Part shown: positions 5,541 through 36,893 of the stretch, one piece after another | Position numbering within the stretch: position 1 is the stretch's first letter | How the letters are laid out: each line of letters starts with the position of its first letter | DNA from: Alphaproteobacteria bacterium | GTDB lineage: Bacteria > Pseudomonadota > Alphaproteobacteria > Rs-D84 > CACZYB01 | Direction of reading: 5' to 3' | Assembly (NCBI GenBank): GCA_016297965.1 | Contig: JAEDDP010000001.1 | Location: 139,347 to 203,346 of the forward strand | DNA: 64,000 nucleotides | The notes under the pieces: model-generated | The model's database searches: none | What the model saw: the letters and a program-made list of their open reading frames with translations, nothing else | What the model was told of the DNA's origin: nothing | Made by a program: the position numbers and the translations under genes

Positions 5541-5572
5541 TATTGTGTAATCAAATAGAAAGGATTTATTGA

Positions 5573-6217
5573 ATGTCAAAGAAAAATAAAAATCACGAAG
5601 ACAAAAGCAAATATTTTGAATTTGGTAAAAATGGGGAACAAAGGGTTGATGAAAATAAAGAATGCAAATGTTCCACAGAAAGTGATGCTTTGGATAATGA
5701 AAATTCTTCGGAATGTGATTGTGGTGAAGGTTGTAAGTGTGCCAAAAAGGGATGTGAAAAGGAAGTTGATTTGATAAACAACCTTAAAGCACAGGTTGAA
5801 GAATGGCAAAATAAATACCTTCGTGCGTATGCCGATGCGGAAAATTCAAAAAGACGTGCGGAAATTGATGCGAAAAATCTTGTTGATTACAAAATTTCAT
5901 CTTTTGCAAAGGATATGATACCACTTGCGGATAATCTTGCCCTTGCAATTTCTTCTATAAAGGGAAAGGTGGATGATGGGGTTTTGACCGGACTTTCATC
6001 CATACAGGATGGCTTTTTAAAGGCACTTGCCCATAATGGAATCGTAAAAATTGAAACGGTTGGAAAAGAGTTGAACCCTTTGGAACATAGGGTTGTTGCA
6101 CAGGTTGAATCCGATGAAAAACCAGAAACTATTGTTCAGGAATTTCAGGCTGGATACAAGATTGGTGATAAGGTAATACGTGAGGCAATGGTTGCAACAG
6201 CTAAACCTAAAAAATAG
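5573..6217 (+). CDS. grpE: Nucleotide exchange factor GrpE with an unusual ~60-aa Cys-rich N-terminal extension
   Basis: C-terminal 150 aa carry GrpE signature (YLRAYADAENSKRR ... coiled coil ... beta domain); N-terminus carries 9 Cys in CKC/CDCGEGCKCAKKGC arrangement. Confidence 0.85.
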   Translation: MSKKNKNHEDKSKYFEFGKNGEQRVDENKECKCSTESDALDNENSSECDCGEGCKCAKKGCEKEVDLINNLKAQVEEWQNKYLRAYADAENSKRRAEIDAKNLVDYKISSFAKDMIPLADNLALAISSIKGKVDDGVLTGLSSIQDGFLKALAHNGIVKIETVGKELNPLEHRVVAQVESDEKPETIVQEFQAGYKIGDKVIREAMVATAKPKK

Positions 6218-6566
6218 TTATGTATCCGGAAAGTTTGCCGAATTTATAGCCAAGTGTTATTTAGGATTGCTTGGCTATTTTGTTATTGCATCAAGGTACA
6301 GTGTTGGGCGTGGCCTTAGTGCCGGTGAGGTTGATATTATTGCCAAAAGGGGTAAGACGATAGTTTTTATTGAAGTTAAAAAGCGGGCGACTTTGCCACT
6401 TGCGATGGAGTCAATTTTTTCACGACAACAGGCAAGGATTTATAATTCGGCGGAGGTGTTTATCGCCAAACATCCCAAATATGCTTCCTTTGATTGTCGT
6501 TTTGATGCGATTTGTTTTAATAAATATTACTTTTTCCGGCATATAAAAAATGCCTGGGGATTTTAG
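6180..6566 (+). CDS. yraN: YraN family (UPF0102) predicted endonuclease; true start probably downstream of the listed ORF start
   Basis: GEVDIIAKRGKTIVFIEVKKR motif typical of YraN/UPF0102; ORF start overlaps the grpE end in another frame. Confidence 0.65.
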   Translation: MRQWLQQLNLKNSYVSGKFAEFIAKCYLGLLGYFVIASRYSVGRGLSAGEVDIIAKRGKTIVFIEVKKRATLPLAMESIFSRQQARIYNSAEVFIAKHPKYASFDCRFDAICFNKYYFFRHIKNAWGF

Positions 6567-6631
6567 GAATATTGTATTATTGCAAGTTATTCTCTTTTAT
6601 TATAATTTTCCAATGAATTGAGGAATATTAT

Positions 6632-7189
6632 ATGAGAACGAAATTGTTTTTACTTTTCTTTTTAGGTATGTTCGTTTTTTCATCTTTTGATGCAAAGGCA
6701 GTGTCTTTTTATTTGGGGACTGGACTTGGTGATTCAAAGGGTAGGGTTGAACATCTTCACCTTGATGATAAGCACGCCTTTGTCTTTTCCATTGGTTCAC
6801 ATTTTAATATTCCTCTTTTCCCCGTTAGGACTGAAATTGAATATTTTAATGCCAAAATGCAAAAGGATGAAATTGGTGATGCAAAGCTTATTGGATACAG
6901 TCTTAACACCTATGTCAATATTCCACTTCTTCCTATATTGGTGCCGTATGTTGGTATTGGATTGGGTACGATGAAGGAAAAGTTTAATAGTGGGGTTTTA
7001 GATTTTTCCAGACAATCAAATTGGAATTTTGTTCCGCAATATATGGTCGGTATTGATTTGGATTTGCCGACTGTACCGGTTGCCGGAAGTATGGAGTATC
7101 GGTATATTGAAAGAAAGTTTGATTTTGATGTGGCGGATTTGAAATCAAAATATCATATCTTTATGTTTAAGGCGCGGGTGAAATTTTAA
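6632..7189 (+). CDS. Small outer-membrane beta-barrel protein (OMP_b-brl / Omp25-like), paralog 1
   Basis: Signal peptide, alternating amphipathic beta-strands, C-terminal aromatic residue (KARVKF); clear paralogy with the next gene. Confidence 0.7.
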   Translation: MRTKLFLLFFLGMFVFSSFDAKAVSFYLGTGLGDSKGRVEHLHLDDKHAFVFSIGSHFNIPLFPVRTEIEYFNAKMQKDEIGDAKLIGYSLNTYVNIPLLPILVPYVGIGLGTMKEKFNSGVLDFSRQSNWNFVPQYMVGIDLDLPTVPVAGSMEYRYIERKFDFDVADLKSKYHIFMFKARVKF

Positions 7190-9509: not shown

Positions 9510-9752
9510 TTAGATATGTGCTTCAATGTACTTTACTGCATCACCAACAGTCAAAATCTTTTCAGCTTCTTCATCTGGAATTTCGCAACCGAATTCTTCT
9601 TCAAAAGCCATTACAAGTTCAACTGTATCAAGAGAATCTGCGCCAAGGTCATCAATGAAATTTGATTTTTCAGTAACCTTGTCAGCTTCTACACCAAGAT
9701 TTTCAACAACTATTTTTTTTACTTTTTCAAGAACATTTATTTGTTCAGCCAT
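9510..9752 (-). CDS. acpP: Acyl carrier protein
   Basis: 80 aa; [21 protein letters not shown] phosphopantetheine attachment motif. Confidence 0.95.
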
Positions 9753-9874
9753 TTTTTCACCTTTTCGTTTGTTAAAATAATTTTCAGTTTATAACCGAAT
9801 GAAGATAATTTACTATTTTCCCATATAAATGTCAAGAGCAAATACTGAAACAAGATTTTTGGGGTGCGAATCCG

Positions 9875-21808: not shown

Positions 21809-22411
21809 TTAGAAATTGTTTATTTCCTTTAACGCCATTTTTATAAGGTCGTTCATTCCAATCATTGGGTTTTTGTTTATAAGGTTCATTACAACCTCAA
21901 AACTTTGCGATCTGGTATAGCCAAGGTTGGAAAGGGCGGAAATTGCATCTTCGGCGATGGAATCGTTTTTCATTTCCCGTGAAATGCCGGCAAGTTCAAG
22001 GTTTATGTTTGTTTTTTGAACCTTGTCCTTTAATTCCTGAACTATACGTTCGGCGGTCTTTTTCCCAATGCCATTTGCCGTTGTGAATGAAACGGCATCA
22101 CCGGATAAAATAGCGGTGGAAATTTGTTGTGGGGTAAGGGCGGAAAGTATGGCAAGTCCGGCCTTTGGTCCGATACCCTGTACCAAAGTCAAAAGGTTAA
22201 AAAATTCGTGTTCGGTTTGGGTGGCAAAACCGTAAAGTGTGATACTGTCTTCACGTACTATTGTTTCAATCCAAAGTGTAAGAGGAGTGTTTAAGGTTAG
22301 TTTTGATATTGTCTTTTGTGGCACAAATACACCATAGCCAACACCGTTCACATCAAGTATTATTTGTGTTTCCGAAAGTGTGTCAACAATGCCCTTTAAT
22401 TTTGAAATCAT
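21809..22411 (-). CDS. ruvA: Holliday junction DNA helicase subunit RuvA (no adjacent ruvB)
   Basis: 200 aa; N-terminal OB domain ILDVNGVGYGVFVP, HhH motifs LVQGIGPKAG, C-terminal domain III. Confidence 0.9.
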   Translation of the reverse strand: MISKLKGIVDTLSETQIILDVNGVGYGVFVPQKTISKLTLNTPLTLWIETIVREDSITLYGFATQTEHEFFNLLTLVQGIGPKAGLAILSALTPQQISTAILSGDAVSFTTANGIGKKTAERIVQELKDKVQKTNINLELAGISREMKNDSIAEDAISALSNLGYTRSQSFEVVMNLINKNPMIGMNDLIKMALKEINNF

Positions 22412-24852
22412 TACCAGTTTATCGCCTTTATTTTTCTTACCATATCATTATAATTGAATGGTGAAATTTTGGAGTTATTGTGAATACATCTCTTTCCAAC
22501 TCCTTCAACTTGTTGCCAATCATCAAGGTTAAAATTGTTATATTGTTTTGAAATATAATCATATTCTTTTACAAGTTCTTTCATCGTTGATTTTTCGTTG
22601 GATGAAATCTTTTCATAATAAGTTTGTTCCTTAAACTTGCTATTTGGTGTAGGTGATATTGAACAACCATACCAACTTTTTGGATTTGTATCGTGAGCGC
22701 ATTTTAATTGAAGTTTTTTGAATATTTCGCAGGCTCTATCCGCTAATTTTTTTAATTCATCAAGATCAGATTTATAATTACACTCTTCTAATTGTTGTTT
22801 TGCATTTTCATACGTTATTGTTTTCCAAACAAAGCTAGTATTTGAACATTGTTTCTTTAATGCATCAAAACAAGCCTTTTGCGCTTCATCGGTATTTAAA
22901 AATACACCTTTTAGTGAAATGCCAAGTTGTGTTTGACACATATTGATTTCTTTTTGAGCATCAATTATCGCATTTAATTTTGTAATGTTTGACTTTATAT
23001 CATCAATAGTTTTTTTGAAATTATCCTTTGTCAAAGTAGGTTTGTCAGATGTATCATTACACAAAGAATTTCTTTTTTCCTTAACTTCATTACATGCATG
23101 TGTATTTAAATATTTTTTTACCTGTGAAATTGAAACTTTGTTTAAAAGTTCACTCTCTTTTTTCATTAAGTCGTTATATTCACTGTAATCAATCCAATTA
23201 TCAACTTTGTTTTTACATTCGTTTGAATAATCATAATTGTCATTACCAGCGGTTGTTGTAAGTTTTAAAGTTTCCTTTATTCCCTTAGTATCTGCATATT
23301 TTTTACATAATTCAGTTTCTATTTTGGTTTTGCAATTTTGTGGATTTTTTCCAATATCAATGGATAATTTGTTGTTGGAGTAAATCTTTTTGGCACCAAC
23401 CAAATAATTGTTGCATTCTGCCAAATCCTTTTCATTTTGTATTGTATTTAAACATTCCTTTACAACCTCATTATTTTCAAGAGTTGTTTTATTTATTGAA
23501 AAATCATTTTTTAATGTTTCTATGTCTGAATCACAGAATTTTTCGGTTCGGCTTTTTGTTGTTATGTAATAATCAAGACTTTTTGTTCCGCTTTTATTTG
23601 GAATAGGAGATACACCGCTACATTTCTCTTGTATTGCTTCCAAAAGGACCAAATTTTTTAAGCAAGTTTCAAGTTTTTCTGCGGCTTTGTCCTGTGATAA
23701 TATTTCATAGCTTTTGCAACTTTTATCTGGTTCAAACATTAACTGTATTTTTGATACGGATTTTGCCAATTTTGCAACTCCATTTTCAAAAATTACACCA
23801 TATCCAGGGTTGTTTGAACTTGCACAAAATGCCTTTGTTGTTTCGTATAAATATTTATAGCCATCAGGACTGTTGTCTTTGAACTCTTTATTTTTAAATA
23901 AGTTTCGTATGTCTGTTGTTAATTTAGAACACTGAGCAAGTTTTTCTATAATACATTCTTTTTGCGTTAATTCATCTTGTTTCTTTTTACACATTTCTAA
24001 TGAAGTAAGTTTTTTAACATCTTCATTTTTACTTATTTTTTGTATTTCAGCTTTACAATCTTCAAGAGCTTTATTTGCTTCCTGTTGTGCCTGTTTTAGT
24101 TTTTCAATATTTTCTTCGGCTGTTGTGGTTTCCGTTGCAATTTTTTTCTTAAGGGCTTCAAGTTGATCATTGGATAGGTTTTCTATGGTTGAAACATCCA
24201 ATTTTACATCCCTTTGATCTGTATTATGTTGTTTAAGGTTTGGAACCTTTTGTTTATTTAATTCTTTGTTCAAATCATCAAAATTTTTTTCGGTGATTTG
24301 TTTTGTCGTTTCTGTTGTTTTGAATAAGTCAGGAATGGAAAGAAGTCCTGCTTCCTCATTAAGTATTTTTGCCAGTGTTCCAAGTCCCGCTTTGATATCG
24401 GCCATTAGACCTGTTTTTGTTTGTGACTCTATTGTATTTATTTTTTCCCGTAATTTTTGGAATATACGAAGTTCTTCATAAAATTCCTTTATTGTCTTAA
24501 AGGTGTCATGTGATGCCGTTTCCGCAATACTTCCAGTAAGTTTTTTTGTGGCTGGTGCCGTTGGAAAACCATTAGGGCAGTCCTTGGTAATGCCTTCTTC
24601 CTTGCAAAATTTAGAGCAATCGCCAGTATATTTTGCATTTTTACAATAGTTATTTTGTAAATCTTCTACTTCTTTAAGAAATGCGTTTGCCACACTGTTA
24701 AGGTTTGTTGCTGTATCAGATGGTATTTTAATTTCAAGGTTTCGTTCAATCCTTGTGTCAGAATCAGACTTTGCACCAGAATCAGAAACCATCCCTGCGT
24801 AAAGAGTAGGGGAAAAGAAAAGACAAAGTAGTGTAGCTATCACTTTTTTCAT
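22411..24852 (-). CDS. Large secreted Cys-rich, Lys-rich coiled-coil protein (hypothetical)
   Basis: Probable start MKKVIATLLCLFF signal peptide; ~40 Cys distributed in CxxC/CK pairs; stop overlaps the ruvA start codon. Confidence 0.6.
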   Translation of the reverse strand: MKKVIATLLCLFFSPTLYAGMVSDSGAKSDSDTRIERNLEIKIPSDTATNLNSVANAFLKEVEDLQNNYCKNAKYTGDCSKFCKEEGITKDCPNGFPTAPATKKLTGSIAETASHDTFKTIKEFYEELRIFQKLREKINTIESQTKTGLMADIKAGLGTLAKILNEEAGLLSIPDLFKTTETTKQITEKNFDDLNKELNKQKVPNLKQHNTDQRDVKLDVSTIENLSNDQLEALKKKIATETTTAEENIEKLKQAQQEANKALEDCKAEIQKISKNEDVKKLTSLEMCKKKQDELTQKECIIEKLAQCSKLTTDIRNLFKNKEFKDNSPDGYKYLYETTKAFCASSNNPGYGVIFENGVAKLAKSVSKIQLMFEPDKSCKSYEILSQDKAAEKLETCLKNLVLLEAIQEKCSGVSPIPNKSGTKSLDYYITTKSRTEKFCDSDIETLKNDFSINKTTLENNEVVKECLNTIQNEKDLAECNNYLVGAKKIYSNNKLSIDIGKNPQNCKTKIETELCKKYADTKGIKETLKLTTTAGNDNYDYSNECKNKVDNWIDYSEYNDLMKKESELLNKVSISQVKKYLNTHACNEVKEKRNSLCNDTSDKPTLTKDNFKKTIDDIKSNITKLNAIIDAQKEINMCQTQLGISLKGVFLNTDEAQKACFDALKKQCSNTSFVWKTITYENAKQQLEECNYKSDLDELKKLADRACEIFKKLQLKCAHDTNPKSWYGCSISPTPNSKFKEQTYYEKISSNEKSTMKELVKEYDYISKQYNNFNLDDWQQVEGVGKRCIHNNSKISPFNYNDMVRKIKAINW

Positions 24853-24960
24853 AATGTTTATTGTATCATTTTTTTTCGTGAAGGGCAAGACCTATTTATC
24901 GTTAGTATTAAAAAAAAGCCCCCAATGAATGAGGGCAATGTTTTAAAAAGTGAAAGTTTG

Positions 24961-26457
24961 TTATTCTTCGGAAGGTTCAGTTGGGGTTGCCGGTGTATCA
25001 CCAGAACCATCAAAGCTTGTATCTCCGGTGCCGTCGCCTTCTTCACTAGAATATGAAGAGGTAGAAGGATTTTCAGGTTCTTTTTCTTCGCCACCTGTTT
25101 CACCGGAAGATTTCTTTTCTTCCCTTAATTTTTTGGCTTCTTCACGTTTATTTTTTCTTTCTGTTGCCTTTTTCTCCTTTTCTTCGGCTTTTTTTGCCTT
25201 ATCTAATTCTTTTTTAACAGATTTTACTTCTTTGTTTAAAGCTTTATAATTTTCATTTAACTGATTAACCTTTTCAACAAAGTCAGGTTCGGTGCTTTCA
25301 GGAATGGCTTCCTTTTGAGCCTTTAATTCTTCTATCTTTTTGGTTAAATCACTTTTCTTTGTTTCATCGGTAATTTCGTTAATTGAGGTTGTTAATGTTT
25401 CTATATTACCGTCAAATTTGTTAAGCATATCTTTTGCAGATTTTATATCCTTTATTTGTTTATCTGCTTCACGTTCTTCTTTGGTCTTTCCGGCCATTGT
25501 GTCATTTGCCCAATTTGTACCCTTGAATGCGCCAATTTGGTCAACAATATATTCCTTTCCACCGGCAAGAAGTCCCTTTTCGTTAATCTTTCTTTCAATT
25601 GAGCTTGTCTTGTCAACAAGGGCGATGTTTGCATCGTAAAGTTCAGTGTAGTTTTTCTCGCCACACATCATATTACCCTCTGATTTAAGGGAGTTTACAA
25701 GTTGGATTAAATCACGTGGAAATTCGGTTGTTTTAAAATCAATTTTAAGGTCAAGAAGTCGTCCATAGGCCGCAAGGTTTGACCAACCGATATTTCCAAC
25801 CTTTGAAAAGTATGAAGTTAGACTGTCCCCAGTTTCGGAGTCGGAAATTTCTTCACCATTTGAAATTCTTTTATATTGTAATTGTATTGCGGATTTTCCA
25901 CATCTGCTGTTTAAATCACCACTTGAAATGACAACTTTTTCATTTTGGCTTGTCAAAACATAACGATAGCATTCTTCAGCAGCAAGTGAGCGGGCAAGGG
26001 CGATATTACAATTTTTTGTATCATTTGCGGCATAGCTGTCGTATGAATTCCAAAGGTTGTTTACCGCTTCTTCAATGAAATTTGCACAATAAATTTCATT
26101 TACCTCAGTTGTATCGGTTGGAAGAATTATCCCCGCATAGGCTTCGGTTGCATTTTTACATTTGTTGTTTCCACAATAGTTTTTAAGAGATTTAACAACC
26201 ATTGCAGTACAGTTTCGTTTTGCACTGGCATCGGTGATTGGGGCAACCTGTGTATAATCGGTTGTTCGTACGGTTGTGTCGGCAACGGTAGCATTTACGG
26301 ATGTTGTTGTACCGCTTACCTTTACATTACCACTAAGACTGCGACGAGATGAGGCAGAACGTGCGGAAGAACTGTTCCTTCTGGAATTTCTTGCGGCGTC
26401 TGCATTTTGATTGAAAAGTACAGCCAATCCCAATAATGCAATAAGTTTTTTAGTCAT
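24961..26457 (-). CDS. Secreted Cys-rich protein, paralog family member
   Basis: Signal peptide ADA-A then ARNSRRNSSSARSASSRRS; paralogous blocks with 19991-21763 and 26472-27977; acidic/K-rich low-complexity C-terminus. Confidence 0.7.
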   Translation of the reverse strand: MTKKLIALLGLAVLFNQNADAARNSRRNSSSARSASSRRSLSGNVKVSGTTTSVNATVADTTVRTTDYTQVAPITDASAKRNCTAMVVKSLKNYCGNNKCKNATEAYAGIILPTDTTEVNEIYCANFIEEAVNNLWNSYDSYAANDTKNCNIALARSLAAEECYRYVLTSQNEKVVISSGDLNSRCGKSAIQLQYKRISNGEEISDSETGDSLTSYFSKVGNIGWSNLAAYGRLLDLKIDFKTTEFPRDLIQLVNSLKSEGNMMCGEKNYTELYDANIALVDKTSSIERKINEKGLLAGGKEYIVDQIGAFKGTNWANDTMAGKTKEEREADKQIKDIKSAKDMLNKFDGNIETLTTSINEITDETKKSDLTKKIEELKAQKEAIPESTEPDFVEKVNQLNENYKALNKEVKSVKKELDKAKKAEEKEKKATERKNKREEAKKLREEKKSSGETGGEEKEPENPSTSSYSSEEGDGTGDTSFDGSGDTPATPTEPSEE

Positions 26458-26471
26458 AATTTTTTCTCCTT

Positions 26472-27977
26472 TTAATCATCCAAAGTTGTAAATTCTGTTT
26501 GGTTTAGTTCCTTATTTTCTTCCCTTCCAAGCATCTTTTTAAGGGCAGTTTTTGAAAGGTTTACGTTTTCATTTTCCATATCGTAATCAATTGTTTTATA
26601 TTCAATGGTTGCATTTTCACCAACACCGGTTTTGCGAACCTCAATTATACGATATTGTTTTTTCTCGCTTTCCTCAGGTGTGAGAAGAAGGTATTTCCCG
26701 GTTTTAAGTTCAGATTTCTTTTCCTTTAATGTACTATCGGAAATATCACCGCTTAGTGTAAGTACGGCAATGCTTGTATCCGTATTAACATCTTCATCTT
26801 TTACACCACCAATGATACCTTCACGGGAAAGCTTATTCATACGGTTTTCACCAACGATAACAGATGCCTGGTTAAAGGTCCAGGTTTGTGCGCCCTTTAA
26901 TCCACCCTGTTCATCAATTGCCCGAGCAAGAGATGACTTTTCACGGGAAACCTGAATATCGGTTTGATGCATTGTTGCGGTATATTCGGAACCGCAGGCA
27001 GGTCCAACTTCGTTTAGGTGAGTGTTTAGAATTTGGGTTATTTTTACCTCCCAATCGTTGGATTTGTCAGTAATTTTTCCATCCAAATAATTACTTACAA
27101 CTTCAATTCCATCGGCAGGGCTTAATTTTCCGGCATTTATATATAGTCGTGGAATGTCGGTTGGGAAAATTATACCCTTTTGTTCCTCATCCCCAAAGAG
27201 TTTGGTCCATTTTGCTTGGAGACCAGCAATTCCGCAAAGGCTGTTTAACTTGCTTTCAATAGAATCAACCGCACCGGTTGCACGTCCGGCGGAAAGTACG
27301 GCCTGAAAACATTCGTTTGATGCCTCCGCCACAACACGTTTAAGTTTGCAATTTGGTGAATTTGCACCGGTTATTTGGTAATCATCGGCAATGCTTTTTG
27401 TTAAATCCTCAGTAAACATATAGCAAGCCTTATCATACTCATACGCCTGACCTTCAATATATACGGTAATGCCAGAAGTATCAAAGTTTATGAAAAGGTC
27501 GTTTGCATCATAACATTTAAGTTTACCATCTTCGCCAATGCCGTTGTTGAAATAAGATTCATCACAGGCATTTTGAATTGCATTTATAAGGGCATTTCCA
27601 CAAGCCTTTCTTTGTGAAACGGCAAAAGAATCACTCTTTTTAATACATTCATTCGTGTTTGATGCATTTATTATATAATTTGTTTCATCAACACATTCGC
27701 ATGCGGTTCCGGCGGAATTTTTTCTGGCATTTGCACCACATTTAAGGAAAGCAGTTGTTTTTTTACCGATACATGCCGGATCGCCAGGTTTTGCACACTT
27801 TATTGTCTTTATTCCGGATGTTGTATTTTTAAGTCCGGTGGAAGTTTGTGCGTTCGTTGCGGAATAAATTGAACGGGCGGATCTTCGGTTTGTACGTGCA
27901 GAATAAACATCACTACCAATTAGAAGTAATGGTAGAGCCATAATTTTTATATAAAAGTTTTTGTTCATTTTTTTCAT
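26472..27977 (-). CDS. Secreted Cys-rich protein, paralog family member
   Basis: Signal peptide then SARTNRRSARS motif; shares the ACG...SLARAIDEQGGLKG block with the other family members. Confidence 0.65.
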   Translation of the reverse strand: MKKMNKNFYIKIMALPLLLIGSDVYSARTNRRSARSIYSATNAQTSTGLKNTTSGIKTIKCAKPGDPACIGKKTTAFLKCGANARKNSAGTACECVDETNYIINASNTNECIKKSDSFAVSQRKACGNALINAIQNACDESYFNNGIGEDGKLKCYDANDLFINFDTSGITVYIEGQAYEYDKACYMFTEDLTKSIADDYQITGANSPNCKLKRVVAEASNECFQAVLSAGRATGAVDSIESKLNSLCGIAGLQAKWTKLFGDEEQKGIIFPTDIPRLYINAGKLSPADGIEVVSNYLDGKITDKSNDWEVKITQILNTHLNEVGPACGSEYTATMHQTDIQVSREKSSLARAIDEQGGLKGAQTWTFNQASVIVGENRMNKLSREGIIGGVKDEDVNTDTSIAVLTLSGDISDSTLKEKKSELKTGKYLLLTPEESEKKQYRIIEVRKTGVGENATIEYKTIDYDMENENVNLSKTALKKMLGREENKELNQTEFTTLDD

Positions 27978-28842: not shown

Positions 28843-30999
28843 GTGGTGTTAATAGTGTTCTTTAAAAGAAAATCAATAGAAAATCAAAATAATGTTGCTT
28901 CCAAGGATATAGAAGTTAAAGAAGAAAAGTTGGAGGCAACTTCTTCTGTATTGTCTGAGCCAACTGATGATGTAGCATCAGATTTTTTAATTTCTGGGTT
29001 ATCAGATAATCTTAAAAAACTTATAAAAAAGGCACGGAAAAGAGGTTTTGTTTCCCGTGCAATGGTGGAGCAGGCGTCCGAACTTGATGGATTGTCGGCG
29101 GAGGAGGCAGAAGATGCCCTTATCCGTATTTCCGAAATTGGGGTGAATGTTCGTGAAGAATATGACGAAGGGGATGAACTTTCCCTTGACGATGATGAAG
29201 AATTGGATGAAGACGAAGATTTTGAAGAAGATGATGCCGATGAATTGGAATGTAAAACTTCGTCTGATGATGACAGACTTTATGGTGTAAGCAAGTTAAC
29301 AATTGAGCATAACCCTGCGATGAAGGAGTTTTTGTCTTCACATCAGGGGGATGATGACGAAATTAAATTCGTTGAAAGTAGGAGTAGTGATCCAGTAAGA
29401 AATTACCTTCGCACAATGGGTTCCATTGAACTTTTTTCACGTGCCGGTGAAATTGCAATTGCAAAGCGAATTGAAGCTGGACGAAAGCTTATGATTGAAG
29501 GACTTTGCGACAGCCCGATGACCGTTAAAAAAATTCTTGGCTGGTATAACAGCCTTGTAAAGGAAGAAATGCAACTTCGCGATATTATCAATCTTGATTT
29601 GATGTATGGTGATGTGTTTATGGATAAGGAAACCGTTGATGAGGAAGATCTTGAAGAAGAGGAAAATTCTTCTGGTGATGCCTTTGATGATTTGGATGAT
29701 GAAAACCTTGACGAAGCAGAATTGTATGAAGATAGTTCACAGGTTCCAGTTAATGCGATGGAAGAATCACTTCGTCCAACGGTTATTGAAACATTTGAAA
29801 ATATTAAAAAGATTTATGCAAAGCTTAGCCGTCTTGAAGATAAGCAAAGTGCAGATAAAACAAAGGTTGATTTGGCAACATTTAAGTCAAAGCATTCAAA
29901 ACTTTATTCCGAACTTGTTTCCTATATGGCGACAATAAAGCTTAATGACGCAAGGATTACAGAACTTCTTGATGAAATGACAGACAAGAACAGAAAGCTT
30001 TTGTCATTGGAAGGACGTCTTTTAAGACTTGCCGAAAATTCAAGAATTAAAAGGGAAGATTTCCTTGAAAAATACAATGCGACTGGTTTAACCGATGCCT
30101 GGATAAAAAAAGTTTCAAAAATTTCATCAAAGGATTGGAAACGTTTTACAACTGTGCATATTGATGAAATTAACCGTATTAAGGGTGAAATGCAGTTGAT
30201 TGAAGATGAAACTGGTCTTCCATTAAAAGAATATAAAACCGTGGTTGAAGTTGTTCGTAAGGGTGAACGGTTTGAATCCACCGCAAAGAAGGAAATGATT
30301 GAGGCGAATCTTCGTTTGGTTATTTCTATTGCAAAGAAGTATACGAATCGTGGACTTCAATTCCTTGATTTGGTTCAGGAAGGTAATATTGGTTTGATGA
30401 AGGCGGTTGATAAGTTTGAATATCGTCGTGGGTATAAATTTTCTACTTATGCAACATGGTGGATAAGACAGGCTATTACTCGTTCTATTGCAGACCAGGC
30501 AAGAACTATACGTATACCGGTACATATGATTGAAACAATTACAAAGTTGAAAAAAACATCACGTGTAATGATGCAGGATATGGGTCGTGAACCAACACCA
30601 GAAGAATTGGCAAAGAAAATTGGGATGCCAATTGATAGGGTAAGAAAGGTTTTACGTATTGCAAAGTCCCCAATTTCATTGGAAACACCGGTTGGTGATG
30701 ATGAAGATAGTTCATTCAGAGATTTCCTTGAAGATAAGAATGTGGTTAAACCTCTTGATGCGGTTGTTAACAGCAACCTTCGTGAAATTACATCACAGGT
30801 TCTTTCAACACTTACCCCAAGGGAAGAAAGAGTTTTAAGAATGCGTTTTGGTATTGGTATGAATAGCGATCATACATTGGAGGAGGTTGGTAAACAATTT
30901 TCCGTTACCCGTGAACGTATTCGTCAGATTGAGGCAAAGGCCCTTCGCAAATTAAAGCATCCGACGAGGGCAAAAAAGCTTAAAACTTTTGTTGAATAA
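28843..30999 (+). CDS. rpoD: RNA polymerase primary sigma factor RpoD (sigma-70) with a long acidic non-conserved region; start uncertain (GTG)
   Basis: Region 1.2-2.4 ([41 protein letters not shown]), region 3 and region 4.2 ([28 protein letters not shown]); large D/E-rich insert typical of alphaproteobacterial RpoD. Confidence 0.9.
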
Positions 31000-31002
31000 A
31001 TT

Positions 31003-31035
31003 AAAAGCCTCCCACCATGGAGGTTTTTTAATATT
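31003..31035 (+). terminator. Intrinsic terminator after rpoD
   Basis: aaaagcctcccaccatggaggtttttt. Confidence 0.7.
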
Positions 31036-31093
31036 TACTTGACTTTTAATACAAAAATATTATTATGTCTAAATAATTTAATTAGGAGTTAAA

Positions 31094-31333
31094 ATGAAAC
31101 AAGTAAATACAGTATCTGATTTGGCGACTTTACATAAACAACATATGCGGGAAATTTGTATGTTTATACAATCCGAAATAGAAAAGGGTGGCGATCCGGT
31201 TATGGTTGTACGAAAGGTAAGCCACAGTCTTGATATGTCATCATGTGATATTTACAGATTTAACAGGCACGAAGGTTATATTTTCAGTCAATATTTTGGA
31301 AATCATATTTCAAAGTTTAGTAAGGGTAGATAA
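31094..31333 (+). CDS. Small protein carrying one transposase-type HTH-like repeat (possibly the 5' part of the next gene)
   Basis: C-terminal KVSHSLDMSSCDIYRFNRHEGYIF matches the repeat consensus of 31336-32052; stop is 2 nt before the next start, in a different frame. Confidence 0.45.
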   Translation: MKQVNTVSDLATLHKQHMREICMFIQSEIEKGGDPVMVVRKVSHSLDMSSCDIYRFNRHEGYIFSQYFGNHISKFSKGR

Positions 31334-31335
31334 TT

Positions 31336-32052
31336 ATGAGACAAGTATACGATGAAGGTAAAAAGAAAAGCATTTGTTTAGAAGTGAAAAACTTGCAGGA
31401 TGAAGATAAATCTTCGTTGTCGGATATTTTATCGGGTATTTGTGAAAAGTATAATGTCGGAACAAATGAAGTTTATGCATGGAACAAAAAGTTTGGAATG
31501 ATTTTTGATAATAATCTTTTTTCAAAGGAAGAAAAGTTTCAAATTTGTTATATCGTTGCGGAACTTATTCTTTGTAATGTTGGTATTGCTGAGGCGGTTT
31601 CTCTCCTTGCACAAAAAAATGGTATTGAAAAGCATGCAATCTATAAATGGAATAGAGAGCTTAAACTTTTTAAAACATCAAAAAAATATACCGATGAAGA
31701 AAAGAAAAATATCTGTCGTCAGATTGCGGTGCTTGCACATGGTGCAGATAATCCCGCATTTGCAGTGCGGATGATGGCGGAAAAATATGATGTGTCTGTT
31801 AAATCAATATATACATGGAATCAAAAATACAGGATTTTTTCAACGATTGATAATGGAAGAACAACACCTTTTGGTCGTGAATTTTGTATTAAAGTCCTTA
31901 AAGAAGTGGCTGAGCTTGGCGGTAATGTTCCGGCGATAGAAGCGGTTGCAAAAAAGTATGATATTTCTTTTTCCGCGATATATGCATGGAATCGTATATA
32001 TAAGGTTTTTATGACAAGAACTTTGTTGTTATCGGATAAAAATAGCCGATAG
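31336..32052 (+). CDS. Protein composed of four tandem IS3/OrfA-like (HTH_Tnp_1-type) helix-turn-helix repeats
   Basis: Four ~55-aa repeats each ending (A)xKY(N/D)(V/I)(S/G)xxx(I/V)YxWN(K/R/Q)xYxxF, resembling the ...GVSxSTLYRWVKQY motif of IS3-family OrfA. Confidence 0.55.
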   Translation: MRQVYDEGKKKSICLEVKNLQDEDKSSLSDILSGICEKYNVGTNEVYAWNKKFGMIFDNNLFSKEEKFQICYIVAELILCNVGIAEAVSLLAQKNGIEKHAIYKWNRELKLFKTSKKYTDEEKKNICRQIAVLAHGADNPAFAVRMMAEKYDVSVKSIYTWNQKYRIFSTIDNGRTTPFGREFCIKVLKEVAELGGNVPAIEAVAKKYDISFSAIYAWNRIYKVFMTRTLLLSDKNSR

Positions 32053-32146
32053 GATTTCATTCTTTAAGTTTTTTTATTTCCTCTTGAAAAATATAACTGG
32101 TCGGTGTATATTTTCTTCTGACTTTATAATAAAAAGGAGTATTTTT

Positions 32147-33403
32147 ATGAGACGTGTTGTTATTACAGGTATGGGAATTGTAAGTCCTTTTGGCCGTGGC
32201 TTGAAATTTAATTGGGAAGAAGGACTTTTGAAATCTAAATCTGCTATACATAAAATTCAGGGATTTGACACAGAAAAGTTTACAACAAAAATTGCCGGAG
32301 AAGTCCCATTTGGTGATGGGGAAGGTCAATTCAATCCGGAAAGTGTAATTCCTTTTAAAGATATTAAAAAGATGGATAAGTTTATTCAATATGCGATGGC
32401 GGCTGCGACTGATGCTATTGAAGATGCAAATTGGAAACCAGAGTCGGATGAGGAAAAATGCCGTACCGGTGTTATGATTGGTTCCGGTATTGGTGGACTT
32501 GGTACAATATATGAAACTGCAAAGGGAATGGTTGAAAAGGATACCGCAAAGGTTTCTCCTTTCTTTATTCCTGCTTCTCTTATAAACTTGGCATCCGGTC
32601 ATGTTTCAATTAAGTATGGTTTTAAGGGACCGAATCATGCGGTTGTAACTGCATGTGCTACCGGTACTCATGCTATTGGTGATGCATCAAGACTTATTGC
32701 ATTGGGTGATGCCGATGTGATGGTTGCCGGTGGTGCCGAAGCTGCGGTTAATCCAATGGGGGTTGCAGGGTTCAGTGCAACAAAGGCATTATCACAACAC
32801 AATGATGAACCAGAAAAGGCAAGTCGTCCTTGGGATAAGGCTCGCGATGGTTTTGTTATGAGTGAAGGTTCTGGTGTTGTTGTTTTGGAAGAATACGAAC
32901 ATGCAAAGGCTCGTGGTGCACATATTTATGCCGAAGTTATTGGTTATGGTATGAGTGGTGATGCATATCATATGACTGCACCGGCAAGTGATGGTAATGG
33001 TGCAAGACGTGCAATGCAAGCAGCATTAAAATCCGCAAATATAAAACCAGAAGATGTTGATTATATAAATGCACATGGAACATCAACAATGGGTGATATG
33101 CTTGAATTTAATGCGGTGAAGGAAGTATTTTCATCGGCACTTGATAAAATTTCAATGTCATCAACAAAGTCCGCAACTGGACATTTGCTTGGGGCTGCGG
33201 GTGCGGTGGAAGCAATATTCTGTACACTTGCAATTCGTGATCAAATTGTGCCTCCTACACTTAACCTTGATAATCCAGAGGAAGGTACAGAATGTATTGA
33301 TTTGGTTCCATTTACACCAAAGAAAAGAAAGGTTGAAATTGCCCTTTCAAATTCATTTGGATTTGGTGGAACAAATGCCTGTGTTATTTTGAAAAAGATA
33401 TAG
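32147..33403 (+). CDS. fabF: 3-oxoacyl-ACP synthase II (KAS II)
   Basis: RRVVITGMG start with SD aaaggag; active-site Cys (AVVTACATGTHA), His-His motifs (HMTAP, NAHGTST), C-terminal GFGGTN. Confidence 0.95.
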   Translation: MRRVVITGMGIVSPFGRGLKFNWEEGLLKSKSAIHKIQGFDTEKFTTKIAGEVPFGDGEGQFNPESVIPFKDIKKMDKFIQYAMAAATDAIEDANWKPESDEEKCRTGVMIGSGIGGLGTIYETAKGMVEKDTAKVSPFFIPASLINLASGHVSIKYGFKGPNHAVVTACATGTHAIGDASRLIALGDADVMVAGGAEAAVNPMGVAGFSATKALSQHNDEPEKASRPWDKARDGFVMSEGSGVVVLEEYEHAKARGAHIYAEVIGYGMSGDAYHMTAPASDGNGARRAMQAALKSANIKPEDVDYINAHGTSTMGDMLEFNAVKEVFSSALDKISMSSTKSATGHLLGAAGAVEAIFCTLAIRDQIVPPTLNLDNPEEGTECIDLVPFTPKKRKVEIALSNSFGFGGTNACVILKKI

Positions 33404-34065: not shown

Positions 34066-34157
34066 GTCGTTTGTTATCATAAAATATCCTTGATTATTTT
34101 CCTTTGCCTTTATATAATTCATTTTGGGTAAGGGTAATTTTTTATAAAGAGAGAAAA

Positions 34158-36893
34158 ATGTTTAAAAAGTTTTTAAGTCTTGGTACCGTTTTATTGCTTG
34201 GTGGATGTTTGACAACATCGGATACCGGTTCGCGTGTTTCGGGGTCTTCATCATCGGGTGGTTCACATTCATCCGGTGGAAGTTCGGACAGAAATCATAA
34301 TAACAGTTCAACAAAGCTTAATCGTATTTCAAAGATTGCCGATTTATCAAAGGATATTGCCGAAGAAAATAAATCCCGTGTAACAAGTGCGTTTAAAAAG
34401 TATAATGAAAATAATTCAACCGGAAAAATTTCCTTTACCACAGAAAATTTTGAATATGCGGATGACATTTTGAAAAATCAAAGTACGGTGAATAATTTGG
34501 CGGGATTGTCATCATCGTATGATACGGTACTTTCCAATTTATCAAACTGGAATTCAACGCTTTCAGGTGTATCACAAAGTTTAGCGGATGCAACACAAAA
34601 TCTTAATTCTAAAAAATCGTCGTTATCACAAAGTCAAACTGCACTTGACCAAACAAAGACAGACCTTATTGCAGAGGAGCAAAAGTTGGATGGGTATTAT
34701 GCAGAGTTGGCAAATTTGTGGAAATTAAAATCTGAATATGGTTCGAATGATTACAGTGGTCCACAGATGTCCACTTTGTTGGGAATGATAAGTCAGAAAC
34801 AACAACAAATAAATAGTTCAGAATCCACTTGTTCTTCGTATCGTAATTCAATATCTTCGTACGAGTCCACAATATCATCCCTTAACAGTGAGATAAGCTC
34901 CGTTCAACAAGATGTGAATAATTATACTTCACAAAAGGATGAAGCGACCGCAAAGGTTAATCAGTATACAAATGAAAAGGCAAGTTTGGAGGATACGATA
35001 ACCACGGAAATACAAAAATTTGATGCGAATTTTAGTGCATCAAAATACGGGGATGCCCTTTCAACCGAAATTAAAAATCGGGTGAATATATATTCCGGAT
35101 ACTATATTATGTCAACAAGACTTGCCAATGTGAAGGTGTTGCTTGATGCCTATGATGAAGGAAAATATACATCCGGTGGAACATCATATACCCGTGGAAG
35201 TTATTATGAAAACAAGGCATTGTTGAATGATTACAACAAGTATTTGCTTGGCAAAAAACGGTCGGATTTTTCAAGTGATAAGGATTATGCGGATTGGCTT
35301 TCGGCCAATGCAACATCATTTTCTGGAAACAGGGCAAGTTATACAAGTGATGCTGCATATATTACCGCGGTGCAGACGGCATATTTTAATTGGGTAAAGG
35401 TTTTGTCCGGTTTGGAAAATTATGCAAAATCTTCATATTCAGCGGATGATTATAATGCGATAATGAATGCACTTAGTTCAAAGCGGTCAAGTTTGGCGAA
35501 TGTGGTTAAAACACTTGAAGATGTGATGGTTGGCGCCCTTAAAAAACTTGATAGCACATATACAAGTGATGAACTTCCGTTGACACTTTCGCAATACATT
35601 GCATTTTTCAGAAACCAGAAAAAGATTTTATCGGCCATAAGTGGTGTTGATTATATTTATGATGTGACGGTTCATCCGGAAGGTGCAGTTTCGGCAACAT
35701 CAACCGGTGATGAAAGTTCAAAATCGGTTTTGACCTATGACTATAATTCCGCCATTTCAGATTACATTTTGAATTTTAGGGAAACTTCAAAAAGTGGTAC
35801 AAACAAAAATGACACGGTTGTAAGTTTTAAGGCGAGTGATTTTAGTGCAAGTGGTAAGGCGTACGTTGCCACATCAACAAGGACCGTTTCAAAGACAGAA
35901 GATTACTATACATTCCTTTCTGGTGTAGAGTCGTATGTGTACGGGGGTGGGGTATTGGATGCAGAAGTTGAATCACGTAGAAAGTACGCACTTTCTGTAT
36001 TTACTCGTGTTCAAAATGGCACTGCAACAGATGCGGAAAAGGCTGTTTTAAAACAATGGCTTGGTTCCAATTTTTCATCGGATATTACAAGTGTTGCCTT
36101 TTCATCCCTTACCGACAATGAAAAGTTGAAATTCAATTTGGCAATGTATATGCTTGGCAAGGAAAAGCCAGATTTCACCGTTGACAAGGCACGAATTATT
36201 ACCGATACGGTAAAGCTTGGCGGAACGGTTGCGGGACTTACATTTTCCGATTTCGGTATTTGGAGTATAAAGGGTATGAATAAGTATACCGGAGATGAGC
36301 AACTTTTGGCAAAGAATTTGGATGGAAAGTTTTCATCCGATACCTATCACGTGCAATATCCGTTTATAAGTGGTATGTCGCAATTTAAGCAGGGGTATGC
36401 TTCCGATTCAACACTTGCGGCTGGAAAATCCGTTGTATTTAAAGGAAATGCACTTGGTGTTGCGACACTTTCCGGAAATAATCAGAGTGATACCTTGGTG
36501 AAGGATTTGTCGGGTTCGGCTACACTTACCGTTGCGAATGATTTGCAAACAAAAAATGGTGTTTCATCCATTTATGGAAATTTAAGTGTGAACTTTGATA
36601 ATTACTATTCATTCAAATTTGCCGATATTGATGTGGCAAGCAAGAATGGATTTAAGTCATCCAATGTTTCAATTGAAAGTTCAAGCAAGGTTGCGAATAC
36701 CGATAAGTTCCAATTTGGAAGCTCGCCAACGCTTAGTGGTTCGGTTACCGGACAAATGTATGGTTTGGAAACGAATCGTCCAACAGAAGCGGTTGGTATG
36801 TTTGATGTGTCATCAAAAACAATTCACAATGACCCAACAAATTCAACCTATTCAAAACTTACCGTTGAAGGTGCGTTTGGTGTAAAGAAGTAA
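34158..36893 (+). CDS. Giant surface lipoprotein (candidate Slam-dependent SLP) with TbpB/fHbp-type C-terminal 8-strand barrel signature
   Basis: Lipoprotein signal MFKKFLSLGTVLLLGGC; Ser/Gly-rich linker; ~800 aa novel region with coiled-coil stretches; C-terminus GQMYGLETNRPTEAVGMF...EGAFGVKK matches the GxFYGxxAEExGGxF...xFGAK(K/R) signature of TbpB_B_D/Lipoprotein_5 domains; translationally coupled to the next gene. Confidence 0.6.
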   Translation: MFKKFLSLGTVLLLGGCLTTSDTGSRVSGSSSSGGSHSSGGSSDRNHNNSSTKLNRISKIADLSKDIAEENKSRVTSAFKKYNENNSTGKISFTTENFEYADDILKNQSTVNNLAGLSSSYDTVLSNLSNWNSTLSGVSQSLADATQNLNSKKSSLSQSQTALDQTKTDLIAEEQKLDGYYAELANLWKLKSEYGSNDYSGPQMSTLLGMISQKQQQINSSESTCSSYRNSISSYESTISSLNSEISSVQQDVNNYTSQKDEATAKVNQYTNEKASLEDTITTEIQKFDANFSASKYGDALSTEIKNRVNIYSGYYIMSTRLANVKVLLDAYDEGKYTSGGTSYTRGSYYENKALLNDYNKYLLGKKRSDFSSDKDYADWLSANATSFSGNRASYTSDAAYITAVQTAYFNWVKVLSGLENYAKSSYSADDYNAIMNALSSKRSSLANVVKTLEDVMVGALKKLDSTYTSDELPLTLSQYIAFFRNQKKILSAISGVDYIYDVTVHPEGAVSATSTGDESSKSVLTYDYNSAISDYILNFRETSKSGTNKNDTVVSFKASDFSASGKAYVATSTRTVSKTEDYYTFLSGVESYVYGGGVLDAEVESRRKYALSVFTRVQNGTATDAEKAVLKQWLGSNFSSDITSVAFSSLTDNEKLKFNLAMYMLGKEKPDFTVDKARIITDTVKLGGTVAGLTFSDFGIWSIKGMNKYTGDEQLLAKNLDGKFSSDTYHVQYPFISGMSQFKQGYASDSTLAAGKSVVFKGNALGVATLSGNNQSDTLVKDLSGSATLTVANDLQTKNGVSSIYGNLSVNFDNYYSFKFADIDVASKNGFKSSNVSIESSSKVANTDKFQFGSSPTLSGSVTGQMYGLETNRPTEAVGMFDVSSKTIHNDPTNSTYSKLTVEGAFGVKK

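Follow-up and report, generated by a model that had tools for sequence, protein, structure and literature searches.

Does a bacterial protein made of nothing but helix-turn-helix (HTH) repeats represent the remains of an insertion sequence (IS), a broken gene or a DNA-binding protein in its own right? This question is raised by two adjacent open reading frames (ORFs), ORF1 and ORF2, which lie between rpoD and fabF in a stretch of 64,000 nt from an Alphaproteobacteria bacterium (GCA_016297965.1, contig JAEDDP010000001.1, positions 139,347 to 203,346, forward strand; the whole stretch is referred to as the window). A sequence-only reading of this DNA had described ORF2 as four transposase-type HTH repeats and ORF1 as the carrier of a fifth, and had suggested a domesticated, possibly frameshifted single gene with a meaningful position next to rpoD. 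Our computational follow-up bears out the repeats and their fold and leads to a different view of the gene structure, the origin and the neighborhood. The array is a new architecture of a known type of DNA-binding module, and we consider with moderate confidence that ORF1-ORF2 form a small chromosomal operon for two paralogous, module-only proteins acting as a modular, multi-site DNA-binding pair.

Repeat architecture of ORF1 and ORF2

Cut at each of the four Y.WN motifs, ORF2 falls into four units of ~57 amino acids (aa), here numbered R1 to R4, which can be aligned with each other and with residues 15–65 of ORF1. A hidden Markov model (HMM) of the repeat was built from family members including ORF2's own repeats and recognizes four domains in ORF2 with 60–71 bits each, scores that are partly self-matches because the ORF2 repeats sat in the model; the repeats are also evident independently of this model from direct alignment and from the Pfam matches described below. 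The same model, run on the 1113 fragments of the six-frame translation of the window, finds one domain in ORF1 with 20 bits (E 2.4e-5) and no further match in the 64 kb. When compared to an HMM of repeat 1, ORF1 reaches 23.0 bits and the best of 500 shuffled versions of ORF1 only 6.3 bits, which confirms the fifth copy. ORF1 lies in a frame other than that of ORF2, with its stop codon 2 nt upstream of the ORF2 start.

The motif AxKY(D/N)(V/I)S... that had been ascribed to every repeat holds for one half of the array: R3 and R4 match A.KY[DN][VI]S...IY.WN, and R1 and R2 deviate from it (CEKYNVG and AQKNGIE, respectively). Invariant residues are Y.WN(K/R) in helix 3, I-F in the linker and, in repeat 1, a cysteine of helix 1. 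Where helix 3 does vary, its residues depend on the place of the repeat in the array and are conserved among orthologues, as exemplified by EKHAIYKWNR in repeat 2. All 16 of the 16 family members tested as well as ORF1 are basic proteins with a pI of 9.1–9.9.

Repeats within one protein share 18–38% identity. In most comparisons, a repeat is closest to its positional counterpart in an orthologue (29–48%, vs 16–41% for other positions), a rule that R3 and R4 break in some pairings, and we therefore conclude that the four-module layout is older than the divergence of these lineages. Tandem Repeats Finder detects no array at the DNA level in this gene because the repeats are too old to show there; solely R3 and R4 retain a 59-nt stretch of 73% identity at a distance of 171 nt.

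ORF1 is closest to repeat 1 (23 bits), followed by repeat 3 (19.6 bits), and shares 16–27% identity with any of the ORF2 repeats. Its repeat ends in IYRFNRHEGYIFS, with a phenylalanine in place of the otherwise nearly invariant tryptophan, and is followed in frame by a linker-like segment, IFSQYF..SKFSK. Two origins fit: an ancient duplication that copied part of the gene from its 5' end, or an upstream paralogue that was truncated.

Predicted homeodomain-like HTH fold of the modules

The Pfam scan supports the earlier assignment of the repeats to transposase-type HTHs. The best Pfam model for ORF2 is HTH_Tnp_1 (PF01527) with 46.0 bits summed over three stretches (E 6.4e-12, cut-off 24.1), and HTH_28 likewise exceeds its cut-off (27.6 vs 25 bits). 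Both models, together with a part of LysM, are matched by 10 of 10 family members tested, subsets of which also match MerR_1, BrkDBD, HTH_23/29 and CENP-B_N. BrkDBD (PF09607 and relatives) is matched by three of the ten members (best E 2.9e-6) and not by ORF2 at E ≤10; no Myb family appears in the ORF2 output up to the same E-value, and the three spaced tryptophans that are the hallmark of Myb are absent from the array, which has one tryptophan per repeat. Weak generic HTH matches are obtained from PHROGs and PADLOC (transposase with 31 bits in PHROG, excisionase, mad1 and HEase).

Taken singly, R3, R4 and R2 score 21.0, 16.9 and 14.2 bits, respectively, with HTH_Tnp_1, all below the cut-off, and R1 yields no match; HTH_28, MerR_1, BrkDBD and HTH_23/29 match at a similar level. 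A profile of the repeat compared to solved structures gives Brinker (2glo, E 0.013), the HTH of Tn552 Bin3 (0.02) and the PBX/Extradenticle homeodomains (0.07–0.3), Brinker being the best meaningful sequence match in the PDB (E 0.013–0.11). These weak matches converge mainly on DNA-binding HTHs; LysM and unrelated entries also occur among them. Domestication from a transposase, as proposed before, is thus not demonstrable, since lone repeats reach at most 21 bits and Brinker, resolvase, homeodomain and MerR-type HTHs are about as weakly matched.

AlphaFold2 produced a poor model from the single sequence of ORF2 (predicted local distance difference test, pLDDT, of 49). We thus used a rerun with an alignment of 10 diverse homologues, in which the pLDDT is 79.3 and the protein comprises exactly twelve helices (4 × 3) and no strands. 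When this model is compared with Foldseek to the predicted viral structures of BFVD, nine matches are obtained at E ≤1e-3 (3e-5 to 1e-3), with a probability of 1.0 and over ~200–240 alignment columns. They are mostly unnamed, and the named ones include endonuclease-annotated proteins and an 'HTH psq-type' protein. The leading, non-significant Foldseek matches in the PDB include proteins that bind DNA through several HTHs (SNAPc Myb repeats, Mos1, TnpE with 2rn7 at a probability of 0.98, Tc3, DUX4 and TnsB), along with unrelated folds. The repeats are homeodomain-like, tri-helical HTH modules, four in ORF2 plus one in ORF1, with the IS3-OrfA type as the nearest sequence model. The matches do not establish a significant sequence relationship of the array to IS3-OrfA, Pipsqueak/Brinker, Myb or the phage proteins.

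Comparison with known multi-HTH proteins

The IS3-family OrfA proteins and HTH_Tnp_1 (e.g. TnpE of Shigella flexneri, PDB 2rn7) resemble the modules in the three-helix HTH and in the recognition-helix signature ...S..T(L/I)Y.W.... OrfA itself possesses one HTH and a leucine zipper, is accompanied by the DDE transposase OrfB produced via -1 frameshifting and belongs to an element bounded by inverted repeats. ORF2, in contrast, consists of four tandem HTHs and nothing else, has no OrfB, inverted repeats or mobility, and occupies a conserved chromosomal locus.

In its tandem layout, the array is also comparable to the Psq-type (Pipsqueak/Brinker) proteins of Drosophila. Pipsqueak reportedly binds DNA through tandem repeats of ~50 aa related to the HTHs of transposases and recombinases. 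In favor of a likeness are the BrkDBD matches and the structural match to a phage 'HTH psq-type' protein mentioned above. Unlike the array, however, these proteins are eukaryotic and carry extra domains (BTB); the similarity is marginal and does not demonstrate common descent.

The phage proteins in BFVD are the sole significant matches that extend over ~200–240 columns of the four-module model. Those with names are annotated as an 'endonuclease' of BcepSauron, a 'DNA mismatch endonuclease' of phage ME3 and as LAGLIDADG, HNH or Endonuclease I proteins. Homing endonucleases employ tandem HTH DNA-binding modules to read long sites. In contrast to these nuclease-annotated proteins, ORF1 and ORF2 could not accommodate a catalytic domain, show no sequence match in phages and are not mobile.

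Several tri-helical HTHs per chain are also present in Myb R1R2R3 and SNAPc, the bipartite domain of Tc3/Mos1 and the DUX4 double homeodomain, in which they occupy successive major-groove sites. These eukaryotic readers differ in that the Foldseek matches to them have an E of 0.02 or higher, the number of repeats is two to 4.5 and the protein contexts are others.

Relatives and conservation of the locus

A word-indexed protein search with ORF2 returned only the cluster of its own species, and a search with the single-repeat profile only ORF1's own cluster. Scanning the GTDB species genomes added three orthologues of 37–41% identity, all from metagenome-assembled genomes of uncultured Alphaproteobacteria, one of them from Hadza gut samples. 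An exhaustive HMMER scan of 1.84 billion representative proteins gave 55 matches at E ≤1e-3, of which 16 at E ≤1e-10; these counts are upper bounds because a repeat query draws unrelated repeat proteins. P0011 (eukaryotic sushi repeats), P0013 and P0036 (low-complexity repeats) and P0026 (a true LysM array) were discarded. Family members so far come from metagenome-derived sequences only, the orthologous group from gut-associated Alphaproteobacteria. 'Hypothetical protein' is the sole source name of the cluster members read, neither Pfam nor NCBIfam holds a model specific to the array, and no description of such bacterial HTH arrays was found in the literature. Eukaryotes have well-known proteins composed solely of at least four tandem HTH modules (Myb, Pipsqueak and multi-homeodomain factors); to our knowledge, stand-alone, vertically inherited bacterial chromosomal proteins that consist only of four or more tandem HTHs are essentially undescribed.

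Syntenic loci encode array proteins of 37–42% (L002, L003, L004 and L024) and ~31–34% identity (L005, L007 and L025). The array gene of L002, L003 and L024 is located between rpoD and fabF as in the window, without ORF1. In L004, two further genes lie between rpoD and the array gene; rpoD is absent from its vicinity in L005, L007 and L025. A significance of the adjacency to rpoD, to which the sequence-only reading had given weight, is therefore not supported; it is fabF that always follows downstream, on the same strand and ~70–140 nt after the array gene(s) in all of these loci, with an invariant TTGAA...TA.ATT promoter-like element in the spacer. The two genes inserted in L004 (7929–9921) are paralogous and lipoprotein-like (308 and 326 aa) and were seen in this lineage only.

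The FabF proteins of L002 and L005 are 84% and 72% identical to that of the window, and the array proteins 41% and 33%. The genomes are thus moderately distant relatives, and the array protein changes far more rapidly than the proteins encoded next to it. Taken together, these comparisons show vertical inheritance of ORF1-ORF2 within an uncultured, gut-associated clade of Alphaproteobacteria with low GC content.

Some lineages harbor several array genes. L005 (7196–8972) encodes two paralogues of 267 and 323 aa separated by 1 nt, and L007 (851–4309) three of 267, 558 and 316 aa, of which the 558-aa protein has about nine repeats. In both loci the paralogues, with 4 to ~9 repeats, are arranged head to tail with gaps of 1–26 nt and always end just before fabF. 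In L008, a two-repeat paralogue of 147 aa (5541–5984) lies 16 nt upstream of the distant four-repeat member P0012 (238 aa, 6001–6717). Its second repeat ends in IYRFNRELGGIFS, strikingly like IYRFNRHEGYIFS of ORF1, both with phenylalanine where every other repeat has tryptophan, which hints at an old 'short partner' subtype. Across the family, we observed repeat numbers of 1, 2, 4, 5 and ~9.

As an aside, the uncharacterized proteins P0039 (808 aa) and P0022 (692 aa) carry about 10 or more tandem HTH-like repeats (e.g. ...ESGTKTLDEIAEKYGITKHTLYNWRKANG...), and long HTH arrays may be commoner in metagenomes than annotation implies.

Proposed function and its closest alternatives

The HTH fold, the basic pI and the conserved recognition helices make multi-site DNA binding, which the sequence-only reading had also put forward, the most plausible interpretation at this stage. 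In the mechanism that we propose, ORF1-ORF2 would be transcribed from their own sigma-70-type promoter just downstream of the rpoD terminator, and translation of ORF2 would be coupled to termination of ORF1 across the 2-nt spacing. The third helix of each module (S/T-x-x-x-I/V-Y-x-W-N-K/R) would be placed in the major groove of the DNA. With short conserved linkers (I-F-x-T...) and with a conserved recognition-helix signature of its own in each module, the four modules of ORF2 might read one long asymmetric site or several neighboring sites within a few tens of bp. The role of ORF2 would then be that of a transcriptional regulator or of an architectural DNA-binding protein, and the single-module ORF1 protein may co-bind with it or compete for part of the site.

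Control of fabF or of membrane-lipid synthesis is the leading candidate target, if a weak one, because the array gene(s) always lie directly upstream of fabF. Usually, it is acpP that directly precedes fabF. In the window, acpP is found at 9513–9788 on the minus strand, 22 kb away from fabF and on the other strand, and the array gene takes the place directly upstream of fabF; hence, fabF is uncoupled from acpP in this genome, which is the further reason for the lipid-synthesis guess. A role of the array in fabF control is speculative. Improbable, in our estimation, is a more far-reaching proposal by which the family is a modular DNA-reading system, with each ~57-aa module reading one DNA word, the number of modules setting the length of the target and adjacent, co-transcribed paralogues binding side by side, and by which it became in this clade a dedicated regulator of fabF and membrane lipids after the uncoupling of fabF from acpP.

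Several observations weigh against a multi-site DNA-binding regulator. With a predicted template modelling score of 0.37, the ORF2 model does not fix how the modules are placed towards each other, and Foldseek finds nothing significant for this model in the PDB (best E 0.023). At depth, ORF2 shows a ratio of nonsynonymous to synonymous substitution rates (dN/dS) of 0.5–0.6 with dS saturated, a fast evolution that is unusual for a core regulator. No operator motif was found in the two conserved spacers, in which only the promoter-like elements are conserved, and one of these elements gives fabF a conserved promoter-like element of its own. The compared genomes are fairly close (fabF 72–84% identical), the distant members P0012 and P0014 reside in other chromosomal contexts with neither fabF adjacency nor transposases, and the link to fabF may be inherited synteny within one clade. 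Finally, three-helix bundles of the HTH type can also mediate protein-protein contacts.

This last point leads to the best-surviving alternative, which we regard as possible though unlikely: the HTH likeness may exist at the level of the fold only, and the bundles may serve protein-protein or other non-DNA contacts, for example as a scaffold for RNA polymerase, a sigma factor or lipid-synthesis proteins. Single repeats do stay under every Pfam cut-off, the most conserved residues are hydrophobic (I, Y, W and F), and the conserved, confidently predicted linkers could mean that the repeats pack against each other; the fast evolution of the protein and the neighbors rpoD and fabF would also suit such a role. 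The net charge, however, is basic throughout the family, the weak matches are mostly to DNA-binding HTHs as described above, the full-length structural matches are phage proteins, some of them endonuclease- or HTH-annotated, and the adjacency to rpoD is not conserved.

A little more doubtful still is a nucleoid-associated protein without sequence specificity, which would coat or bridge DNA via four equivalent HTH modules and have no specific regulon. The proteins are small, basic and modular, the paralogues vary from 1 to ~9 repeats and the genome of the host is low in GC, all of which is in line with such a protein. The position-specific recognition-helix signatures, however, are kept across orthologues, which points to distinct specificities of the modules.

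ORF1 and ORF2 are separate genes under purifying selection

Strain L001, ~98% identical to the window, carries the same ORF pair, and its ORF2 differs by 21 synonymous and 9 nonsynonymous substitutions (dN/dS 0.10). The 90%-identity cluster of ORF2 comprises 49 sequences, and 15 of the 15 members listed are 238 aa long. A public collection indexes a protein identical to ORF1 in 249 blocks. The 100% nucleotide identity of ORF1 to L001 was dropped as a signal, divergence along the region being patchy (0–24 differences per 250 nt). For a comparison of more divergent ORF1 copies, strains were fetched via the most divergent ORF2 variant (92% identity) and were hence unselected on ORF1. Here, six nucleotide differences were found in ORF1, six of six at synonymous third positions, and the same applies to seven of seven polymorphic sites over all strains compared. 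We take ORF1 to be translated because its polymorphic sites are all synonymous. Within the species, ORF1 is more constrained than ORF2, and both are shown by these data to be genuine protein-coding genes under purifying selection.

That ORF1 stops 2 nt before ORF2, in another frame and with a fifth repeat, had given rise to the proposal of one five-repeat gene, either broken by a frameshift or read by programmed ribosomal frameshifting at 31325–31340. This is very improbable, and we reject it in its programmed as well as in its mutational form. The frame of ORF2 is closed by a TAG at 31327–31329, two codons upstream of its ATG, and by further stops upstream, so that the frames overlap at the junction by the single codon AGA (GGT AGA TAA), and no slippery heptamer X XXY YYZ is present there. 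In other strains AGA is changed to AGG. The ORF1 stop reads either TAA or TAG in every strain compared (TAG in L001), and the 2-nt spacing is the same in every strain locus examined. A fusion would also create a linker of 36 residues, vs ~19 between true repeats. Four orthologous loci (L002, L003, L024 and L025) have the four-repeat gene without ORF1; in L002, L003 and L024 the rpoD terminator, the promoter block and the AGGAG site run straight into this gene. Other lineages harbor separate adjacent paralogues, and ORF1 is itself under selection. ORF1 and ORF2 are thus shown to be separate cistrons, and the layout of stop, 2 nt and start fits ordinary termination-reinitiation (translational) coupling.

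The locus is not a mobile element

The sequence-only reading had noted neither a transposase ORF nor inverted repeats, and this was confirmed: there is no DDE transposase ORF near ORF1-ORF2, the downstream gene being fabF, no inverted repeats flank the pair, and no transposase is found among the called genes at any array locus examined. Searches of plasmid and phage collections with the array proteins by tblastn gave no matches. The GC content of ORF1-ORF2 equals that of the flanking genes. Hence, it is extremely improbable that the locus is an insertion sequence of the IS3 (or IS66) family, ordinary or as a remnant, with ORF1 and ORF2 as OrfA-type proteins. In favor of this are the best Pfam and NCBIfam matches (HTH_Tnp_1, IS66 TnpA and IS3 transposase) and the PHROG 'transposase' match, but the NCBIfam scores are far under the cut-offs (39 vs 74 bits, and 28 vs 160 bits for transpos_IS3), the pair is present in a single copy in 64 kb, its position is fixed across lineages down to 31–42% identity, and both ORFs are under purifying selection. 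The locus lacks all the features that define an insertion sequence, and these results show that it is not part of a mobile element.

Just as remote is a LysM-type peptidoglycan-binding repeat protein: the Pfam LysM model (PF01476) does score 33.9 bits (cut-off 20.9) and matches 10 of 10 family members, because the string IAKKYNIS..DIYKWN of the helix pair also occurs in genuine LysM arrays (e.g. P0026), but the matches span only profile positions 11–29 of 43, that is, the helix pair without the flanking beta strands, the AlphaFold2 model is all-helical, and no N-terminal signal peptide is recognizable (MRQVYDEGKKK...).

Coordinates and genomic neighborhood

The features of the locus are compiled in Table 1. 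The promoter block CTTGAC/T ... TATTATGTC can be aligned between the window, L002 and L003; in L024 the -10 element is less conserved. A hairpin equivalent to the rpoD terminator follows rpoD in L002 and L003. The start of fabF differs from the TTG at 32084 that a mechanical ORF list gives; the true start is the ATG at 32147, which is preceded by the ribosome-binding site AAAGGAG and yields the 418 aa that match the orthologues.

Table 1. Features of the ORF1-ORF2 locus and its flanks (positions in the window)
Feature	Position	Strand	Remarks
rpoD	28843–30999	+	gene upstream of ORF1-ORF2
rpoD intrinsic terminator	31003–31028	+	10-bp stem followed by T run; sets rpoD apart from the ORF1-ORF2 unit
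Predicted ORF1-ORF2 promoter, TTGACT-16-TATTAT	31039–31066	+	sigma-70-like, 10 of 12 consensus matches; consensus match only
ORF1 Shine-Dalgarno sequence, AGGAG	31084–31088	+	5 nt upstream of the ORF1 ATG; read from sequence; kept in all strains compared
ORF1	31094–31333	+	79 aa, single-repeat paralogue, pI 9.1
HTH repeat of ORF1 (aa 15–65)	31136–31288	+	ends in IYRFNRHEGYIFS; repeat HMM 20–23 bits
ORF1/ORF2 junction, TAA-TT-ATG	31331–31338	+	ORF1 stop (31331–31333), 2 nt, ORF2 start; frames differ
ORF2	31336–32052	+	238 aa, four tandem three-helix HTH modules, pI 9.1
ORF2 repeat 1 (aa 1–58)	31336–31509	+	helices aa 7–23, 28–39, 43–52
ORF2 repeat 2 (aa 58–114)	31507–31677	+	helices aa 64–79, 84–95, 99–109
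ORF2 repeat 3 (aa 113–170)	31672–31845	+	helices aa 120–133, 141–150, 155–165; best single HTH_Tnp_1 match (21 bits)
ORF2 repeat 4 (aa 176–227)	31861–32016	+	helices aa 181–193, 198–208, 212–222
Promoter-like element in ORF2-fabF spacer, TTGAAA-17-TATATT	32084–32112	+	TTGAA and TA.ATT invariant in alignment of eight loci from different lineages
Terminator downstream of ORF2			none detected
fabF (3-oxoacyl-ACP synthase II)	32147–33403	+	418 aa; sole neighbor conserved across the orthologous group

Some further observations concern the surroundings. The hairpin of the rpoD terminator varies among strains (the window and L026–L029), with CCTCCCA-CCATGGAGG in some and CCTCCCACCCGCGGAGG in others and with the pairing of the stem kept. 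Directly upstream of rpoD lies a TrcR/DUF1013 gene (PF06242, 28146–28757), as in L001, L002, L003 and every strain of the species that was examined. Large proteins of 825, 498, 501 and 929 aa are encoded in a cluster at 22411–27977 on the minus strand and at 34104–36893 on the plus strand; they have a high content of Ser, Thr and Asn, seem to be secreted, have no Pfam hits and may be hypervariable surface proteins. When the window is compared to L001 by blastn, positions 22412–24074 cannot be aligned, and 24074–24983 are 92.7% identical vs 97.7% elsewhere.

Implications

For annotation, our results mean that the labels LysM and 'transposase' are misleading on array proteins, that mini-genes of the ORF1 type are real and that the locus should not be labelled an insertion sequence or a pseudogene. 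If the modules do not bind DNA, the array is still a clear case of the reuse of an HTH-like repeat. If they bind DNA, the family would offer a natural series of 1, 2, 4, 5 and 9 modules in which the recognition of long sites by HTH arrays can be studied, and it may give insight into the control of fatty-acid synthesis in a lineage without a cultured representative.

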